A stretch of DNA of 64,000 nt. Source: Xylographa opegraphella (lineage: Eukaryota). The position numbers and the translations under genes were made by a program. A model generated the notes under the pieces. The model was not told the DNA's origin, did no database searches, and worked only from the letters and a program-made list of their open reading frames with translations. Positions 51,364 to 64,000 of this stretch are shown piece after piece. The first letter of the stretch is position 1, and every line of letters starts with the position of its first letter. Location of the stretch: contig JALDZX010000016.1 of the NCBI GenBank assembly GCA_022813865.1, positions 1 to 64,000 of the forward strand, written 5' to 3'.

Positions 51364-52511
51364 ATAGCTGGTGTACAGCGGAGTCAACTCGAATATATTC
51401 ACCAATAAGACCCGTTGGGCACGAGAAATTTCACCGGGATACTGACACCTCAGGAAATGGTACACGCATGTAATCACCATCCACGTGTAAGTCTCATTCT
51501 GTGTACAAGGATTCTAATCCTGAAATAAATGCTTATAATATTGCTGCTTCACAGGCTACCTCCCAGAGCACTTGTTGCAACGGAGTGTTTTCTCGCCTGG
51601 GGCCTGATAGTCCCGCCCAAATTGCGTTCACTGTGAATTACACAGCATAATTGAGGATTTATCTGATCATCAACGCTGAGGTCACCCATAAATTATCTGG
51701 TTCATAATATCAGTCTTCTCTCCTTGGAGCCGGCTTTTATGTACGTTACCTTATCGTCTGCTTGCAGCGAGATGTCTACTATTCACACCTGCATTTTAAG
51801 TGAAACGTTTCTTATGCTCAGGAATCTAGGTATGCTGGTGGGCTTGCCCCCAAGTCACCGCGCTGAGCCTAGCTATATCTACAAAATGACGACATGGAAT
51901 ATGGCTCATATCTAAGAAGATGACTCTCAAAAGCATCAAAAGCATAACCTCTGGTATATCTCCGGTAGCTGTGTTTCTGAAGCGTTTCCAATTTTTGCTT
52001 TTCGTCCTATCTAGACATTATATATACAAGAGCAATATGAGCTCTAGATTTTCATGAAGGTGGATGGAACAGACACCGGCTGAGGGTTGCTGTTTATTCT
52101 TTCGCACCACGAGCACAGAGATACAGATCATCGATTCTGCTATATTTCATACAACATGAAAACTCCAAGCTAATCATTCGATTGTTTGTTTTCCTTTCTA
52201 TTCTCCAACCATTGGCGGTGCGAAACAAAATCGCCCATGGAGAGGGGTGCCGTGCCTAGCGTCAACCTGATTGGAGCCGGGTGAATTGTCCACCACGGAA
52301 CATTTAAAGCAAACATGAAAATCATTGTCAACCGTTGCAGTACCAGGCCTATGAGGCTCTGATCCTAACACAGAAGACGTCAGACTTTGCATACGATTTC
52401 GCGTTACGTAGTGGACGAGGCTACTGCCTTAACCATGGCCCCGCGACTTTCTTCAGTTCACACCCCACTTCCTGCTTCTCCCCACTCCACATTCAGTCAC
52501 CACTTTTCAAA

Positions 52512-53769
52512 ATGTCCTCCAGTACGCCAAAAACCATCCGATGGGGCATTCTTGCCACCGGATTAATTGCACAAACATTCACTAAAGATCTTCTTGTTGA
52601 TCCCAAGACTCGCAATGTTCACTCTGTGGTACACACGGTTGGGGCAGCCGCCAGCTCGTCCAGCAAATCACGCGCGGAACAGTTTTTGAAAGACGTTGGA
52701 GCATCTTCGTCTGCAAAAGCCTATGGTACTTACGAGGAATTGGTCAAAGATCCTGAGATTGATATCATCTATGTCGCTACACCACATTCTCATCATTACC
52801 AGAATGTTATGCTATGTTTGGAAGCGGGCAAGAATGTGCTCTGCGAGAAAGCCTTTACTGTCAATGCCGCTCAGCTGAAGATTTTAGTCAAGAAAGCGAA
52901 AGAAAAGGTTTGCGACACGGACAAGAGTATGAAATGTTTGTTGACATTGTATACAGAATTTGTTCCTCATGGAAGCTGTCTGGACTCGCTACTTCCCTAT
53001 TTCGGCCTATGTGCGTGATCTCGTCACCTCCGGCCGGCTGGGCAACGTCACCCGTGTATATGCAGACTTCTCGATGAGCATGGATCCCGAGAAGTCATTC
53101 GCCGACAACAAGCATCGAATGGTTAATGTCAATCTCGCAGGCGGCGCCCTACTAGATCTTGGGATTTACTCCATAACGTGGTGTTTCCAAACCTTATACC
53201 TCACTCAACCAAAGGAGTCCCGGAAGCCACCCAAGGTTATGGCGGCAATGAGCCATTTCCGAACCGGTGCTGACCAGCAGACAACAATCCTCCTCGACTT
53301 CCCACGCTCCAAAGAGTTGGGAGGTAATGCGCACGCCATAGCGACAACAGCCATTGTTGTGAGTGGCGACCCTGACGAGAAAGGGACAGCTGGGCCTGGT
53401 GCGCGTATTCAAGGCGACAAGGGCGAAGTGCAGATAAACGGCCCTATCTGTCGACCCACAAAGTCAAGGCTTATACTCCAGGACGGAACGGTAGAGGATA
53501 AGGATTGGCCACAGCCTGGACCAGGGGAGGGTAGTGGATGGAGGAATGGATTTGGGGGTGATATGAATCCTGAGGGCGTCGGACATGGAATGTTCTGGGA
53601 AGCTGACGAAGCGGCTATGGCTCTTATTGAGGGACGAAAGGAAGGCAAGTATGAGGATCTTGAGGAGAGTGTGGTTATTATGGAAGTCATGGACGAGGTG
53701 AGGAGGCAAGGAAACTTCAAGTACCCGGAGAAGCTTGAGAGTACAGAGTATCCGCTCAAGTTAGACTGA
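52512..53769 (+). CDS. Gfo/Idh/MocA oxidoreductase (dimeric dihydrodiol / D-xylose dehydrogenase-like), intron 52908-52957
   Basis: IRWGILATG, YVATPHSHH, VLCEKAF, FLMEAVWTR, GGALLDLGIY. Confidence 0.93.
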
Positions 53770-54221
53770 GGTCAAGTCACAGAGTTCAAACCGACCTATA
53801 TTCGGATGCATCACAAAGTATCCGTATGTCGATTTGAGCGATACAATTTGTAAGACGCTCTAGCGTTCACCCACATTGAGGATAATTAACCCGCAGTGAA
53901 ATATATTCAATGACACCCAAGTTTCAGAAGTACAAATCACCTCCATGCTGGAAGCCGAACTGCAGAAACAAATCATGAAGCCATGACAACTACGTCACCA
54001 AAGCTGCTAGTCTTGAGCCCGAGCCTCCAGCTTAGTGCCCGGCACTAGGACCGTAGGGTACCGCTAGCATTGCGGACCGATAAACCTCCGCCTTAGCCAA
54101 GCATCAGAACACGTCGTGAAGCAATTCCCAATCGATCAACGCAGAAAGCTCAAAACCACCACTGCGGTCTCCGTCTCCATCCCCCCACCCTAGCAAGCCG
54201 CCTTCATCCCATCTCTCCACC

Positions 54222-55052
54222 ATGGCGCCCAAAAACCGCTCCGCGAACACCCCCAACACATCCACAGCGACACCTACCACCAACATCCCTACAGCCTCGA
54301 GAGCGCCAACCCGAGACGGCTCAATGGCGAGCAAGGGCAAAGCCACCACCGGGGGCGCCCCTAACTTGTATGAAATAATGCAGGGCGTGTGGGACAGCTA
54401 CGTGGACAAGACGCCGCAGCGCACCAAGCTGGTCGATGTCTTCATGGCGTTCTTGGTCGTCGTGGGCGGCGTGCAGTTCGTGTACTGCGTGCTGGCCGGG
54501 AATTATGTGAGTGGGCGGGGGCTTTGCCCCTTTTTGCTTTCCCAATGCCTTGTTCAGAGGATGAGGGGATGCCGGCGTGCGCGGTAGGACAATTGCTCGG
54601 GTGGTGGGGAATTGCTTAAGCTCGGAGGCCTTGTTTGGAGTGGGCCAGCGCTGACTGTTCGTGTGTTTGTGCTAGCCGTTTAATGCCTTTTTAGCCGGCT
54701 TCAGCGCGACAGTCGGCCAGTTCGTCCTTACGGCTGGCCTGCGGATGCAGACGAATCTAGAGAATAAAACGGAGTTTAGTACGGTGTCTCCGGAAAGGTA
54801 CGTTCGGATAGATCACGCTTCTCATTCCGTGGCTATGCACATCGGTCACTCTGGTCTGTCGACGTTCGTGCTGAGGCTACCCGTTATATCTATGCCAAGA
54901 ATTGTCACTCATCTTATACAAGCTGAAGCAACCGCTCGCTGTACACCGAGATGATCTTGTGCTGACAAACAACTTTTACGAACAGAGCCTTTCTAGACTA
55001 CGTGCTGTGTAGCTTGATTCTGCATTTCCTTTGCATAAATTTCATCAATTAG
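54222..55052 (+). CDS. OST2: Oligosaccharyltransferase subunit Ost2/DAD1 (exons 54222-54506, 54676-54797, 54986-55052)
   Basis: TPQRTKLVDVFM, QFVYCVLAGNY|PFNAFLAGFSATVGQFVL, SPER|AFLDY, LHFLCINFIN*. Confidence 0.96.
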
Positions 55053-55314
55053 ATCACGGGACCGGCACTGAGGGGGCGGGCAAAATATACGTTATTGGAT
55101 CGAATGAGCACTACGGAGTTGTACCAAAATCTGGGCTGTGAAAACGTAGTAGTCCTCCCACAATGTACATTAGCCATTGCGCATGTGCACTACACTAGAA
55201 GCAAAAAGTCTTTCAATATGGACGATTGTGAATTCATCAAATGCGCCGGAAACTAATCTATAAACATGACACCTCCTATCCTATCATCGTTTCCCCATTC
55301 AAATGCAACAACCC

Positions 55315-57334
55315 TTATTCTAACCGGAATATTACCCTGAGAGCCTCACCTAGCCTGCGAATCGCCTCTCTGATATTGTCGGCGGAAGCGGAGGCGAAGG
55401 TTGTTCGGAGGAACATGTCTGTCCCACCGTCCGCCTCGGCGCGGAACCAGCTTCCCTTGGTGCATAGCACCCCGCGCTCGATGGCGACGTGAAACACCTC
55501 ATCTTCGATATCGAGCATCGGCACCGAGGACGCTTCCGGATGCAGGCGCCAGTTGATCTTTATCCAGTGCTAAAATTGAGTCAATTTCAAGGATGACCAG
55601 AAAGCAAGAAAATAAGAACACGAAAGGCCTAGAGGAACTATTAAACAAGACTTACAAACATTCCCGCCGCTGGCGGATTCCAGCTTGCCACCTGCGACGG
55701 CAGAAATTCCTCACAAGCACGGCAGATGACGTCCCGGCGCTTCGTGTACTCAAGCCGTAGGTTAATCAGCCAGTCTAGGTAGCCTGCGTGGCCCCACGTC
55801 TCATCCAGTAGTTTGTATAGCGTCATTTGGCTGAAGCCACTGGGGCTTTGCGTCGAGACCTCCTGGTGGCGTATGAAGCGCTCGACGATCTGCTCTGGAG
55901 CTGTAATCCATCCTACACGCGCTCCAGGCGCAATCACCTTCGAGAACGAGTCCATGCGCATGACGCGCCCATCCACATCCATACTAAGGAGGGAGGGAAC
56001 GATCGATTTAAGAAACTCAGCGTGGGAGGCGGGAGGTGGGACATCTGGTGCATTGGGGCCGGTATACGGCTGCATCTGTAGGAAGTAGTACGGCTCGTCC
56101 TCGAGGATGTAGAGGTCGTGCTTCTGTGCGACGCGATATATATCACGGCGGCGCTGTTCTGACTGCGTCGCGCCCGTTGGGTTGCCACCGGTCGGGACGG
56201 TGTAGAGAAGCCAAGGCTTCTTGGCGCCGCGGGAAGTTTCATCCCAGGATGAGAGGATTTCATTCAAGGAGGTAGCAAGCATGCCTTGGGCATCCATTTG
56301 GACTCCAATGACTCGTACGCCCATCGGTGCGGCGGTCTCAACGGCCGTGGCAAAGGTGTATTCTTCTGAAAGGATATAATCGCCACGAGTAGTGAACATG
56401 CGGTAGGCCATGTCCAGGGCGGAAGTGCTGCCGACAGTGGCACAGCACTGCCAGTCACGGTAGGGGGGGTTATGAACGATCTGGGTAAAGGAAACTGGGA
56501 TTAGCATCGGGTTGAGTCTAATAATGAATATGAAAGCTGTACCTCAGTGTGTTCAGTGATGAAGCGAAGTAGCTGGGGGGTCCCTGCGGCCTGACTGTAA
56601 TTGAGAGCTACGTGGATATCTGCGGTTTGTTAATAGAGAAAGTTCAGTTATTAAGGGAAGACTTACCGAACAAGCCCTTGCCTTCAGCAATGTCATGCTT
56701 TCCTATACTCGTGACAACGCCCGTTTCTTTGGTGTCATCTTCTGAAAAGCCTGGAGGAACGGGAACTTTGGTATCGATACATTCGAATGGGAAGTATTCG
56801 CTTGATGGTAGACCTCCTCCTAAAGATATGATACCTATATCTTGCTTTTAGAGGAGACGATTGCACATTGAGAATCAGGAAATACTAACCAGGATTCTTG
56901 AGATATTTCGCTACGCCTTTAATAGCTGTTGGCTATCTGTATTGTCAGCAATAGCTTACTATCTACTGTTTTTGGGTATAGACCTTTCTTGATTTACTTT
57001 CTTCGTTCAAGCGATCTAAGAAGTTTGTTAATATATCAACATACTATCAACTACATGGTTTTTGAAAAAATATTACGTACGATCCCATCGCTTTGCTTTC
57101 GGTTTGCCATAGCCCTATATGAGCGTCAACTCCAACACATTCCGAGTGAAGTTCAAAACGGTGACTGACGGGACCCTTGAACATCTCACTGCTTGATGCA
57201 GCAACTAAACCACCATCCATTCTAGGAGCCTTGTTCCGACGAGCAAAGACGCCATTGACACTCAATGGACCGGATATTGTGGCAACCTGCGTATCGGTAA
57301 CGCTCTGGAGGTCTATAGCTGTAGGAGGAGCCAT
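55315..57334 (-). CDS. ARO8: Aromatic amino-acid / 2-aminoadipate aminotransferase (PLP class I), many introns including three very short 5' exons
   Basis: ISLGGGLP, ALNYSQAAG, PTGGNPTG, EDEPYYFLQ, PLP-Lys in DSFSK, PAAGMF. Confidence 0.92.
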
Positions 57335-57966
57335 ATTTCGAATTACACGAAACTGAGCAACTATGTAGAGGAAGGTGTGAAAAGTAGAAGATCAAATTTA
57401 CGAAAGGTAGATTTAGAAATCGCTGATGAGACTTTCACTGACTCCCGTAACCAAGAATTTGAAGAAATGCTTAACTCTGTTCAAAGTGGCTGACTGTTTG
57501 AGATACACGGGCAATATTTGAACCCGCAAACAGTCAGAGATTATTGAGTGCCAGTATAATTGAGTCCCAGTAGCATCAAGGTTTTCTACTTTGCTTTCTG
57601 ATGGAAAACCCGAGTCCTAGAAAGCATTACAAGCAGGAAGGAGTGAACGTTAGTTCTTAGCGCGCTATTCTAGCCCTTATCGGGCAGCTCGGGCCACCGA
57701 TAAAAGAAATTTCGTTCCTAAAATAGCCGCTTGTAAGCGCATCCTACAAAAAGTCTTCGGGTGCTGTTGAATACAGCCTATCAGATGCTGTGAATTGTTA
57801 TGGCTGTACGAGTTCTCGAGAATCGGCAAGCATTCAGATTACCCTAATCCGTGTACTGTAGGAATATCTCTGAATAGCACACCACGCCGTTAGCTTAGGA
57901 TCAAGCTCCATTACTCCAGTGCCTTGACTCCAAGCTCGGTAACAGCTCGTTACCTTGATACACAAC

Positions 57967-59054
57967 ATGAGAGGGAAACGTTCAAAGCAGTACCGCAAGC
58001 TGATGCAGCAATATGGCCTCACATTCGGATTCCGGGAGCCTTACCAAGTGCTCAGTTAGTATTTCCCTTGGCCACTCTGTTCCTAAAGCTCGCTAACCCG
58101 TGCTGCTAGTCGACGCGCAAATGCTACAAGATACCTCACGCTTCAAGATGGATCTCGTTACTGGCCTAGAGCGGACGCTCCATGGACAAGTCAAGCCCAG
58201 TAAGACTCATCGGATTGTCGAAACCTCTCTGAAGCTTGACACAGTGATACAAATCAGTATTTTTCTTCAGTCAACTGACATTGTACGCAGTGATCACACA
58301 ATGTACTATGCGACATTTCTACCTCCTACCAACATCCACACCTACTGATGCCACACCCTCCACTTCCACCATGACCATGAGCAGCAAGAATGCCCTTATT
58401 GACCTCGCCCGAACCTTTGAACGCCGCCGCTGTGACCACCACACCCTGGATGAGCCTCTTTCGACGCTTGCATGTTTCACCTCGGTGGTTGATCCCAAAG
58501 GATCCAGAACAAACAAGAACAGATATATAGTCGCCAGCCAGGAAGAAGAGGTACGGCGATGGGCTCGAGGGATCAAAGGCGTACCAAGTGTGTACGTGAA
58601 GAGAAGTGTCATGGTCATGGAGCCTATGAGCGAAGGGAGCTTGGGAGTGCGAGAGGGTGCAGAGAGGGGGAAGTTGAGAGGAGGGATTAGAAAATCAGGA
58701 GAGCACGAGGAGAAAAAGCGGAAAAGGGTTGAGGAAAGTGAAGATCAAGTCCAGGATGAGAAGGAGGCGAAGAAGAAAAGGACAAGAGGGCTGAAAGGGC
58801 CAAATCCTTTGAGTGTAAAAAAAGCAAAGAAGGAAATTATCTCAGAAGAGAAGGCTGGTCCTATCAACAGCTCTCATGGGATCGAAAAGGCGGCCGCCCG
58901 CGATATATCGGCGGAGGGTTCAATGGCAGCTGGGCCAGATTCTACATCTTACAAGAAAAAACGGAAGAGGAAGCACAAGTCGGGAGCATTAGCTCAGGAA
59001 AACGATTCTGCCGTGGATGTGGATCACGTTCAAGAGGAATCTATTAGCACATGA
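57967..59054 (+). CDS. UTP23: SSU processome PIN-domain protein Utp23, 3 exons
   Basis: MRGKRSKQYRKLM..FGFREPYQVL|VDA, ITQCTMRHFY, ERRRCDH, NKNRYIVASQ, KGPNPLSVKK. Confidence 0.95.
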
Positions 59055-59253
59055 ACTCCGATATTTTAAGATGATCGCCTTTTAAGATTCGCTCGATATC
59101 GTAGAGTCATTGTTTCAGTACCCCTTTTCAAGCCTTTCAGAGAATTGGCTGGCGCTCATCTATCCGACCGTCGGTCGTCACTGCTACCAACAGTATCACA
59201 ACATCCAATGAGCTTCAACAGAGCGGACATGGTCGACCAACCATCATCTTACC

Positions 59254-60474
59254 TTAATCTACAGTATAGGGCGGCGGAACTTGGGACATTTCGTTGTCTC
59301 TGATAATTTTGACTTGCTTCACATCCCTCACATCCACATCCTGCAAGATCCTGATGTTGATCGTCGTTGTCTTCAGCCTCTCCATCAGCTCTTCGCGCTT
59401 CTCCAATGGCCAGTCTTTCGTGACCTCTTCGCTTATATCCAGGGGTTTTAGGCACACAGACACGCCGCATATACTACAGAATTTATGCTCGTATGTCCGT
59501 TTGCCAAAGACATAGCCTGTGAGATGCTCGCCGCCGTGTATAGCGATTTGGGTGTTTTGTGGATATATGAGGATATTGGCGTTCTGCAGGAGCATCAGCG
59601 TGCCAATTTACCAAAAAGGTCTCTGTTCCCGTTGAGAAAATGGCAGAGTAATAGGGAGAGTGCTTATGCTGGGGACACAAGGCGGTTTTGCGGATTGCAA
59701 AAGCTATTACACACGAGGGGAAATGCCCTTGTGTCAAGAGAAGAGATACTGAGGGCCAGAGAAGAATTTGAGTGTGGAAAGAGAGTAGGCAGCAGGAACG
59801 CACCCGAACGCAAATACTACAATCATCCTCGTTCACTTCGACCTCCGAGATGGGCTTCGATTTGAGAGCAACAATCACTGCTCCACAATGACAATTGCCA
59901 GTGTAGAGCTTGAGCTCCTGTTTTTCAGCTTCGGTCCTGATGTCCGGGCCTGGGTTCTTCGGCGGTACATATGGATCCCCGAAAGCCGCCCCATTGATTG
60001 GTGGGTTGGGATTGGGGTAGGGATCCACAGCCCAGACGTCAAAATCTCGAAGCGTGCGCACCTGGCGACCCGATTAAATGCATTTCACCGCAAAGATACA
60101 GAACATCAGGGGCCGCTCAGCATACGTTGACTGCAATCATTTCGGTCCCATTGATCATCCCCACGGCCATTACCGGCGTGCCGCATGTCGGACAGAACTG
60201 CAAACGGAATATGAGTCAGGCATTCCACGGGTCTGGGGCCGCTCCGCACCTTGTGAGTGAACGCTTTGCTTGCAGAATGGTACTCCGCCAAAGCATCCTC
60301 GCCTCGCTCGATGGTGAAGGCTTCCTTGCGCGGGTAGACCCAGAGGTAGCCTTTCTTAGAGCAGATGCTGCAGTTGCAGGTCTGGACACTGGTGATCTTG
60401 GGGACCGTGAGCGAGAACTTGAAGGCGGCGCAGTGGCAGTTGCCGCAGTAGGTTTTAGGCGGGGTGGTCGCCAT
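59254..60474 (-). CDS. Tandem two-domain GFA/CENP-V (Mss4-like) zinc protein, 4 exons
   Basis: Domain 1 GNCHC..CNCSIC..FCPTCG; domain 2 GNCHCG..DDCSIC..FCSICG. Confidence 0.9.
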
Positions 60475-60844
60475 GGTGAGTGATGAATCTGGGGAAGACG
60501 GGTTGCAGATAGCTCGTCCTTCGAAGGGGTTCTTAAACGGCCGACGCGTTGCAGCTGCGCTATCAGTTGGCGTCTGCCATTCGGGACGGATGACTCACGG
60601 GCTTACCAATAATAATTCAGGCGCGCTGTCATGTGGGGACGCGCCTCGCGCGTTCCACTTATACCCTCGCTAGACTAAAACTAGGATAGTCAATCGAAGT
60701 CTAGCTCCAGCGTGGGATAGCTTTCTGTAACCAGCACTATCTAAGGTATTCAAGGTACTATTGAAACTAATCACTAGGCGCAGGTAATGGCAGCAGGTAA
60801 CAGTGCATTGCTTAATCACTAAGAAGGTGAAGAGTTCTTCTGGA

Positions 60845-60877
60845 NNNNNNNNNNNNNNNNNNNNNNNNNNNNNNNNN
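60845..60877. other. Assembly gap (33 N)
   Basis: Run of n in the sequence. Confidence 1.
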
Positions 60878-61540: not shown

Positions 61541-64000
61541 CTAATAGAGCTTGTTCGGCTTCCAAAATCCCACCGGAAGTGCATCCACTTCTCCGCATTG
61601 AGCATTTTGCATGGTTGCGCATTCACCATTCAATTGGCTTCCTCGGGTCGGAGGATTCAAGGACCCTAGCTCGTCTGCGCAGCCTTGAATACTCGACAGA
61701 AGTGTGGCACTCGAAAGGAGAGGAGCGAGAAATGCTGGTATTGCGGAGTGTTCATGATCTCCATAATAATCTCTGGAAGCAGGTCCAATGGTAGCGTCGC
61801 ACTGAGTCTCGAACCCACTGGGCCAGTCTCTTTCGACAGAAGCCCAGTAATTGCCTGGCGTACCAGGAAAAGAAGGTGAAAATACGGACTCTCTAACATG
61901 ATGCGGATCATCAAGCTTCGCATCTACCAGCTGAGAATGAGTAGGATGTTCTAGTGGCACAAGGTCTTGACTCATGCTGTCCTCTCCAATGAAGTGGTTT
62001 GCGAAATCAAGACGCTCATTTGCTCTATTGTTCAAAAGATGCCGGTGAGAATGCGAAGCACTCCAAGGCAGCTGTTGCTCATATAATGATTCTGTGCCTC
62101 GGCAGGTACTGTAGCTCGAGTCTTGGAATGGGGAGTAGGCGGAAGCACGATCCCGCGTCTTCCTTGGATCTGTCCAGCTGTATTGGCTCTTGGCAGCTGA
62201 TCCTCTGGAGACAACCGAAGTCGGTCTCACAATTTTGGGTGCCTCAACTGAACAGTGATTATCCACGATAGTAATAGGAGATGGTATTGGCACTTTCTTG
62301 AAGTCGACGTCTTCGATAACTTGAGGATGATCTTCGAAAATGGACTCTGGTTGAATGTCCGTTGTTTGCGGGACTGGCTGAAAGGTGCTCAAATTATCTG
62401 CAGTATTCATACCCAAGCTCGTAGCGGTGTATGGTTTCTGTAAACCATCGGCAAAAGTGATCGGAATTTTGATTTTGTCTTTCCACTGGTCGAGCAGCTC
62501 TTGAACGGCAATTGCGAATTGTAATTGAGGAGTCTGCTCCTTAGGAGACGTGGTTTCTACGGACTTTTCCTGGTTGCTCATAGAGTTATTCATAGGCAAG
62601 ACATGGTTCGTAGATAGCTCAGTGGGTTGCGCAGAATGGACAAAGTCCACGACCTGGGCTTTAGGAGCTATGTTGGGTAGCTCGGCTATGGTCACATCTT
62701 CATTGTGCGGACTAGCATTCTGATCCTGGTGGTTGTGATTATCCAATTGGACACTTTCTTCAACATTTTGTATATCAGATAGTGTATCCGCAACTGATGT
62801 GTTGGCCTCATGTATGGGAGTTCGGATACGTTTGTGCGGTCGTTCTATTTTGCGATGTCCAGCATGGTGCAGAACTGGTAATTCTGGAATTTGACACTTC
62901 TCTCGGTCCGCTTTCCCTGGTGAGCTTTTGAACAGGTCACTCACAGTTCGCTTGTGAGGAGATGATCTTTGATTGTTTGGGCTTGTCGACCACGGAAAGT
63001 AACTTGTTGCGATAGATGGGCTTTGGCGCAAAAGCTGTTTGGCTGGCGACATGCTGGCCTTATAATTACTCGATGGCCCTGGAGAGACAGGAGGTTGTGG
63101 TCCTCTTTCTCCAAACCCCAAGAATGGTCTGATTGGAGCCTTCGCAGGTGTGGTTGAGTTCGTAGCTGTAGAGTACCTGTGTAGCTTTCGGCTCGGTGAA
63201 CGTATTGGTGGAAGTGGAAACGCATAGCCGCTATTGTTATAACTGTTCAGATCTCGCTCAGTCAGAGAGGCCTTTGTTACGGCGAAAAATCGTGAGATTT
63301 CGTCGTCATTTTCAAGTGTATTGTGCTCCCTGTGTCGCTTGCTGTGGTCTGAGTCTCGCTTTGGCACCGGTGGCTTGTCTCTATGAGTACTTAGGAAGTT
63401 TATTTCGGAAAACGAAAGGTCCGGCACTGTCACTTGGTCAGTTCCCCAACATGAGCTGGGCTCCGTAAGATCTCACATCCTCCCCGTCTGTATGGTGACG
63501 ATGCGCGGCCTTTAGTGAAGAGGCCTAAACTTGTACCAGGTCTAAGCTAGCAAGCAGTCAGCGCAACTGACCAAGAACAAGAATCTACCTAGCTAAAAAA
63601 CCATCGCCGGGTGCGCCATACTGTAAGTCTGTCCGAGGAGACATTGTCTGCTGCAAAGTTGTGAAGTAATGCAGCACCAGTCTTTTCTTTTCGTGAAGGT
63701 CTCGTAGATTTCATCGTTTTCCTTTCCTTAGGTGCTTGAACATTTGTCACACCGTGTTTCAGCTCGTATCGGTCTTCCTTCGTCTTGTGCCGTGCCCTAC
63801 GTTCATACGACTTCGATGGTTTCGCGGGAGAAGAGGCTACCTGTGACATTGATGCATCTGAAATAGCTGAGGCTAGTATCGTCAATCCTCTTTTATCACC
63901 TCGAACCTTCGCGTCGCCGTCGGGAGAATGGCCACCTCTGTCATGCTGGTAGGCGGTATGGGCATCAGCGATGGCAGGCCCAAGGTAGGAACTTGAAGAG
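61541..64000 (-). CDS. 5'-truncated, mostly disordered protein with short conserved-looking motifs; candidate PRR19-like meiotic factor (exons >64000-63622, 63546-63477, 63426-61541)
   Basis: Canonical introns (75 and 50 nt) join YERRARHKTKEDRY...NVSSDRLT|LRPGTSLGLFTKGRASSP..|LPDLSFSEINFL to a long exon ending GFWKPNKLY*; frame stays open to the window edge. Gene existence is well supported; the family call is inference. Confidence 0.75.

Follow-up and report, generated by a model that had tools for sequence, protein, structure and literature searches.

The module formed by the cyclin-like protein CNTD1 and PRR19, which turns designated sites into crossovers, has been treated as animal-specific. 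PRR19 (366 amino acids (aa) in mouse, ending at Y356 in human) contains proline-rich segments dispersed along the chain but no motif or domain that is known, and four conserved regions have been defined in it, namely CR1 (R19-A32, arginine-rich), CR2 (L61-S91), CR3 (V144-V191) and CR4 (S344-Y356) (PMC7303132). The fragment 100-217, which includes CR3, binds CNTD1 strongly (PMC7303132, Bondarieva et al. 2020), and the CR3 region is reported to bury two helices in CNTD1 (PMC13192651). Here we analyzed a gene at the end of a 64,000-nucleotide stretch of Xylographa opegraphella (contig JALDZX010000016.1, positions 1 to 64,000; hereafter the window), which a first-pass annotation of the sequence had proposed to encode a fungal homologue of PRR19. 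The gene belongs to a large, unnamed and uncharacterised family that is widespread in Pezizomycotina and keeps a PRR19-like order of short motifs. Judging from its sequence, we consider it plausible, with a probability of roughly 0.45, that this family is a remote relative of PRR19.

Two other pro-crossover systems help to place such a protein. COSA-2 of Caenorhabditis is a disordered crossover-site protein of low sequence conservation, proposed to scaffold a repair compartment and to share the cyclin-binding mode of PRR19 although the two sequences are hardly similar (Uebel et al. 2026 preprint, PMC13192651). It offers a precedent for a kinship, or an analogy, that sequence searches do not reach, although COSA-2 is marked by charge patterning and two cyclin-binding helices and not by the motif set of the fungal protein. 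With COSA-2, CNTD1-type cyclin partners are seen to diverge past sequence recognition, so that the PRR19 hypothesis for the fungal family stays open, but COSA-2 is not evidence for it. HEIP1/REDIC1 (C12orf40) of plants and mammals is similar in another way, being described as a long disordered pro-crossover chain with short conserved parts and several crossover-factor partners (10.1101/2025.08.25.672081). We found no basis for HEIP1 as an alternative identity of the fungal family. We know of no motif resemblance between the two, and HEIP1/REDIC1 stands here as an example of the kind of protein only.

The spliced gene and its conserved motifs

All coordinates are window positions, and residue numbers refer to P0001, a 910-aa database protein model for the same gene. 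The gene has the following parts.

61541..63999, minus strand: gene part inside the window, three exons, residues 134-910 of P0001 and the stop
63622..63999, minus strand: exon A, open at the window end, residues 134-259, 3' end ...NVSSDRLT
63547..63621, minus strand: intron 1, 75 nucleotides (nt), GTATGG...CTAG, with a CTGAC branch-like site
63477..63546, minus strand: exon B, a micro-exon of exactly 70 nt, encoding LRPGTSLGLFTKGRASSPYRRGG and the first base of Leu283
63427..63476, minus strand: intron 2, 50 nt, GTGAGA...ACAG
61541..63426, minus strand: exon C, residues 283 (last two bases) to 910, coding to 61544, TAG stop at 61541-61543

When the three exons were joined and translated by a script, the product of 777 aa was letter-for-letter identical to residues 134-910 of P0001, and thus the 70-nt exon that the first-pass annotation had deduced is already present in an existing gene model. 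The same model supplies the 5' part that the annotation had noted as missing, as residues 1-133 are coded beyond the window end (past base 64000). The conserved motifs lie on the spliced product as follows.

63757..63813, minus strand: basic motif, CR1-like, KSYERRARHKTKEDRYELK, containing RRARHKTKEDRY; residues 196-214; family consensus YERRPRHKTR.DRYE
63377..63678, minus strand: composite CR2-like block across both introns; residues 241-299; G.ALL..F.A.NV...RLTL.P...LGLF.KGRASSP...GLPDL.FSE..FL
63278..63304, minus strand: DEISRFFAV; residues 324-332; family pattern EIS.[FY]F, ending the predicted helix 312-330
63095..63148, minus strand: PAKAPIRPFLGFGERGPQ; residues 376-393; family pattern LP.KPFLGFGS.GP
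62981..63007, minus strand: TSYFPWSTS; residues 423-431; family pattern SY.SWSES
62453..62521, minus strand: amphipathic helix QFAIAVQELLDQWKDKIKIPITF, containing AVQELLDQWKDKIKIPITF; residues 585-607; loosely conserved L/V-G-x-[LIV]-L
61544..61573, minus strand: C-terminal motif VGFWKPNKLY; residues 901-910; family consensus GFW[RK]P[NH].LY at the carboxy terminus; FWKPNKLY with the stop at 61541-61567

The four motifs named by the first-pass annotation, a basic motif, an RLT/GLF motif, an amphipathic helix and a C-terminal motif, were thus all located on the spliced product in the order it gave, and its claim that one of them depends on the micro-exon also held, since NVSSDRLT/LRPGTSLGLFTKGRAS straddles the junction of exons A and B. 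In an alignment of 66 family sequences conservation is limited to short blocks, and three of its highest peaks fall on the basic motif, the RLT/GLF block and the C-terminus; the motifs picked out beforehand exceed chance. The helix is conserved only as a looser pattern, so that three of the four (basic, RLT..GLF..S and FW.P..LY) are tightly conserved and the fourth is not. The list was also short by five blocks, namely an N-terminal I..WL helix (residues 9-17), KRKR.SSDSS.LE (127-139), LPDL.FSEM.FL, EIS.[FY]F, and PFLGFG with SY.SWS. The composite block reads G.GL.Q.F.AKNV...RLTLKP...LGLF.KGRASSPV.G.GLPDL.FSEM.FL in the 66 sequences, and it contains every residue that is invariant in the family (P284, D285, L286, F288 and L294).

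The form of the amphipathic helix differs between lineages: PELLGAVLDALL in Teloschistales-type lichen fungi, DP.TSS.LG[KR][LI]L.[ED]C[ND].AF in Pleosporales-type sequences (P..SS.LG.LL..C..AF as the summary for Dothideomycetes), and TP[TS].[KL]L[RK].A..A[VI] in Mycosphaerellales-type sequences. The N-terminal helix (residues 7-22, I..WL) is kept from lichen fungi to Dothideomycetes, where it takes the form MDI..WL..T.

An AlphaFold2 prediction of P0001 from the 66-sequence alignment gave a mean predicted local distance difference test score (pLDDT) of 48.2 and a predicted template modelling score of 0.29, with pLDDT below 50 at 666 of the 910 residues, in agreement with the otherwise disordered protein of the first-pass annotation. 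Helices were predicted at residues 7-22 (pLDDT 84-91), 96-110, 312-330 and 582-600 (pLDDT near 88), the last being the amphipathic helix already mentioned, and for the basic motif, the RLT/GLF block and the C-terminus the model shows no regular structure. Proline and serine make up 8.1% and 11.4% of the residues. As modelled, the protein is a long chain without much fold, in which some ten short linear motifs and three or four isolated helices are set, and this combination of disorder and short motifs suggests that it most likely works as a docking scaffold.

A large unnamed family in Pezizomycotina

The closest relatives are hypothetical proteins from five Xylographa species, with 50-62% identity across exon C, which places the source among lichen-forming Lecanoromycetes near that genus. 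Beyond them, 1.84 billion representative proteins were searched exhaustively with a profile built from 17 lichen-fungus sequences, and 1339 representatives matched at E<=1e-3, 734 of them at 1e-10 and 279 at 1e-30; the best 150 of the 1339 matches were listed, without names. Names came from a word-indexed search, in which a 41-sequence profile was run against a library of 5.8 billion proteins and the 8000 candidates sharing most words were scored. It returned 105 proteins at E<=10, and each named one is a fungal 'hypothetical' or 'uncharacterized' protein. The named members come from lichen fungi, Pleosporales (including Lentithecium, Karstenula and Exserohilum), Mycosphaerellales (including Hortaea, Zymoseptoria, Cercospora, Zasmidium and Baudoinia), Aureobasidium and Helotiales (Drepanopeziza, Cadophora), and thus represent four classes, Lecanoromycetes, Dothideomycetes, Leotiomycetes and, counting one Phialophora protein, Eurotiomycetes. 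No Sordariomycetes or Eurotiales appear among the named members, which is not evidence of their absence because only the 8000 candidates sharing most words were scored.

No known domain was recognised in this family. At E<=10, Pfam matched no family to the three exon translations and assigned no domain in eight full-length relatives; a sequence search of the PDB matched nothing at E<=10, the results from the ESM Atlas were confined to ascomycete clusters without a name, at 0.83, and six locus tags of named members were not mentioned in the literature searched. Two Pfam candidates were dropped. Top6b_C matched one member weakly (E 0.12), and RDD1 (PF15828) matched the basic region in 2 of 41 members with a best E of 0.023, and one segment with E 0.37, under its curated cut-off; the RDD1 matches are probably compositional because they lie in an Arg/Lys-rich stretch.

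A regular-expression census over 258 family proteins found both the basic and the C-terminal motif in 75, and the motif order was kept in all 75 of them. Other blocks were present in most of these proteins (LPDL.FSE in 75, RLT in 73, GLF..S and EIS.[FY]F in 66 each, FLGFG in 55 and [YF]..W[SP] in 53). The motifs proposed from the single Xylographa sequence are therefore conserved among the fungal orthologues, both as peaks in the 66 sequences and in their order. The C-terminal motif alone was counted in 179 of the 258 proteins, 94 finishing in RLY and 53 in KLY (RLY or KLY in 147 of 179).

In the remaining 183 proteins at least one of the two end motifs is missing, and many of them are truncated gene models. 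The basic motif occurs without the C-terminal motif in 56 of the 258, 24 of which are shorter than 340 aa; conversely, the C-terminal motif stands without the basic one in 104, with LPDL.FSE inside the first 62 residues in 26 and a start past LPDL.FSE in 48. Many database models of the family break around the 70-nt micro-exon region (window 63427-63621), so that annotation often divides or drops the key RLT/GLF motif. One member, P0022 (a Pyrenodesmia record of 1384 aa), has the family body followed by a long hydrophobic, membrane-like C-terminal part with a GMN-like motif (alignment columns ~1130-1647), and is probably a gene-model fusion to a neighbouring transporter gene.

Comparison with PRR19 and competing readings

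Like PRR19, the fungal protein appears mostly disordered with scattered proline-rich segments, has no known domain and is conserved only in short regions. Its order of basic motif, RL[ST]/GLF block, helix and tyrosine-ending C-terminus is the order of CR1-CR4, and the spacing from the basic motif to RL[ST] is 51-66 residues in the fungi and about 46 in human. For the residue comparison, the letters of the human motifs were those quoted in the first-pass annotation, and they are consistent with the eight boundary residues and the length in the legend of the PRR19 paper (PMC7303132). Hand-aligned to these letters, the basic motif has 5 of 11 residues identical in the window protein and 9 of 11 in P0061, another member of the family. 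The RL[ST]/GLF block has 6 of 20 in the window protein and 9 of 20 in P0061, there with one 3-residue gap. The helix, compared with the human VGQLLAEL......AF, has 5 of 18 without a gap in the window protein with the hydrophobic register kept, and P0061 also has the ..AF. At the C-terminus the window protein shares P, L and Y, and P0061 shares R as well. The shared residues are mostly near-invariant positions of the fungal family (R203, K205, T206, R257, L258, G267, S275, P906, L909 and Y910), and the resemblance increases, not fades, in fungal classes other than that of the window protein.

On the scaffold reading, a little-folded chain carries about ten short, strongly conserved docking motifs, each of which would bind a folded partner. 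Four of these motifs fit CR1-CR4 in order, as R.R[RH]KT[KR].[DE]RY, RLT...G[LI]F.....S, the L/V-G-x-L-L helix and an aromatic-..P..LY terminus, and we favour the view that the family is a remote PRR19 relative, or at least carries the same motif set. In that case such a scaffold would be brought to recombination sites and hold a partner of the cyclin-CDK (cyclin-dependent kinase) type there during crossover maturation. For the fungal family we infer the kinship, a nuclear location, such a partner and a meiotic role.

Several results weigh against kinship and favour another explanation, in which the family is a disordered scaffold that is peculiar to Pezizomycotina and has no relation to PRR19, its docking partners act in a vegetative nuclear process (DNA repair, replication or cell-cycle control), and the likeness comes from chance or from the low complexity of short motifs. 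We regard this explanation as a serious contender, held at somewhat less than even odds. Every formal search for PRR19 was negative, and no search gave statistical support for the kinship: there was no PDB match and no lead in the ESM Atlas; no PRR19 family came up at E<=10 in Pfam scans with 56 queries (3 exons, 8 and 41 proteins, and 4 motif-bearing segments), a negative limited by the Pfam copy, whose inclusion of a PRR19 model was not confirmed, and by HMMER filters, which hide most weak matches; and no animal protein was among the 105 matches of the word-indexed search at E<=10, a ceiling beyond whose reach PRR19 is estimated to lie. For LPDL.FSEM.FL, the fungal block with the strongest conservation, PRR19 offers a degenerate counterpart at most, and four more blocks (including EIS.[FY]F, PFLGFG and SY.SWS) and the N-terminal helix have none in CR1-CR4, which leaves at least five conserved fungal blocks without a counterpart. 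Only one confident helix (582-600) is predicted in the region to be compared, as against the two CNTD1-binding helices of PRR19, and the fungal proteins are about twice as long (median 720 aa versus 356-366). The basic motif lies in an Arg/Lys-rich stretch, where partial identity comes cheaply, and the patterns for the comparison were picked after both sides had been viewed, with no chance level computed. No CNTD1-like cyclin is known in fungi. In the word-indexed search, many records from Hortaea werneckii and from rock-inhabiting black fungi had the family intact; these fungi are not known to have a sexual cycle, and its retention in such lineages is a weak pointer to a non-meiotic role. Finally, all named family members are Pezizomycotina, whereas the PRR19 homologues reported are from animals only, from most of them between cnidarians and vertebrates but not from Ecdysozoa; the authors searched eukaryotic reference proteomes with a hidden Markov model of CR2 and CR3 and then with BLAST and obtained animals only, with no mention of a fungal relative (PMC7303132). 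Our own literature searches found no paper describing a fungal PRR19, as the first-pass annotation had stated.

An unrelated scaffold would nevertheless have to account for four motifs that agree in order, with one of the four anchored to the carboxy terminus, and for matches that sit on near-invariant fungal positions and improve in other fungal classes. Chance agreement at four ordered sites is, in our judgement and not by a computed value, unlikely. The proposal that Pezizomycotina keep an unrecognised PRR19-like protein is partly supported: a conserved, uncharacterised and disordered family with a PRR19-like order of regions is shown, and its descent from a common origin with PRR19 is a reasonable hypothesis.

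The same motifs also allow the family to be seen as an adaptor for mismatch-repair or translesion factors, which we think improbable as a full account and which is compatible with either a PRR19 relative or an unrelated scaffold. In EIS.[FY]F (residues 324-332) the S-x-[FY]-F part is invariant or nearly so in the 66 sequences, at S327 and F330, and lies at the end of a predicted helix; it resembles the MIP box, through which Mlh1 is bound, and the RIR motif, which binds Rev1, and may act as one of them. RLTL (residues 257-260; window 63622-63630) has an RxxL pattern like that of destruction boxes of the anaphase-promoting complex/cyclosome (APC/C), and LPDL.F (residues 283-294; window 63377-63424) contains LP and L.F patterns like those of yeast cyclin-docking motifs; these could be degradation or cyclin-docking signals. 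On the other hand, an Ile precedes the Ser, where the MIP consensus has a basic residue, and four-residue patterns of this kind are common.

Gene neighbourhood and implications

The genes downstream (window 52308-60594) encode a GFO/IDH/MocA oxidoreductase (in two open reading frame pieces), DAD/OST2, a class I/II aminotransferase and Fcf1/UTP23, and two further open reading frames lie in the same interval, one with a weak match to a GFA domain. These neighbours are ordinary and unrelated, and none bears on meiosis. Among the sequencing runs listed as containing this DNA, none is registered as RNA. A run of 33 N (window 60845-60877), which is an assembly gap or a masked stretch, is found ~660 bases downstream of the stop of the gene.

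Even without a link to PRR19, this is a family of 1339 representatives that has no name, no Pfam entry and no paper that we could find, and its roughly ten sharply conserved docking motifs in an otherwise free chain make it a clean case for mapping motifs to their partners. If the fungal family is a true counterpart of PRR19, the CNTD1-PRR19 module would date back to the ancestor that animals and fungi share, fungal genetics and cytology would become usable for its study, and a further partner would be predicted at fungal crossover sites. We hold it tentatively, and think it less likely than not on present evidence, that PRR19 is not an animal invention and that the opisthokont ancestor already had a disordered crossover-maturation scaffold, which Pezizomycotina kept while adding docking motifs to it. 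Were this so, fungal crossover sites would also use a partner of the cyclin-CDK type, which has so far not been looked for.

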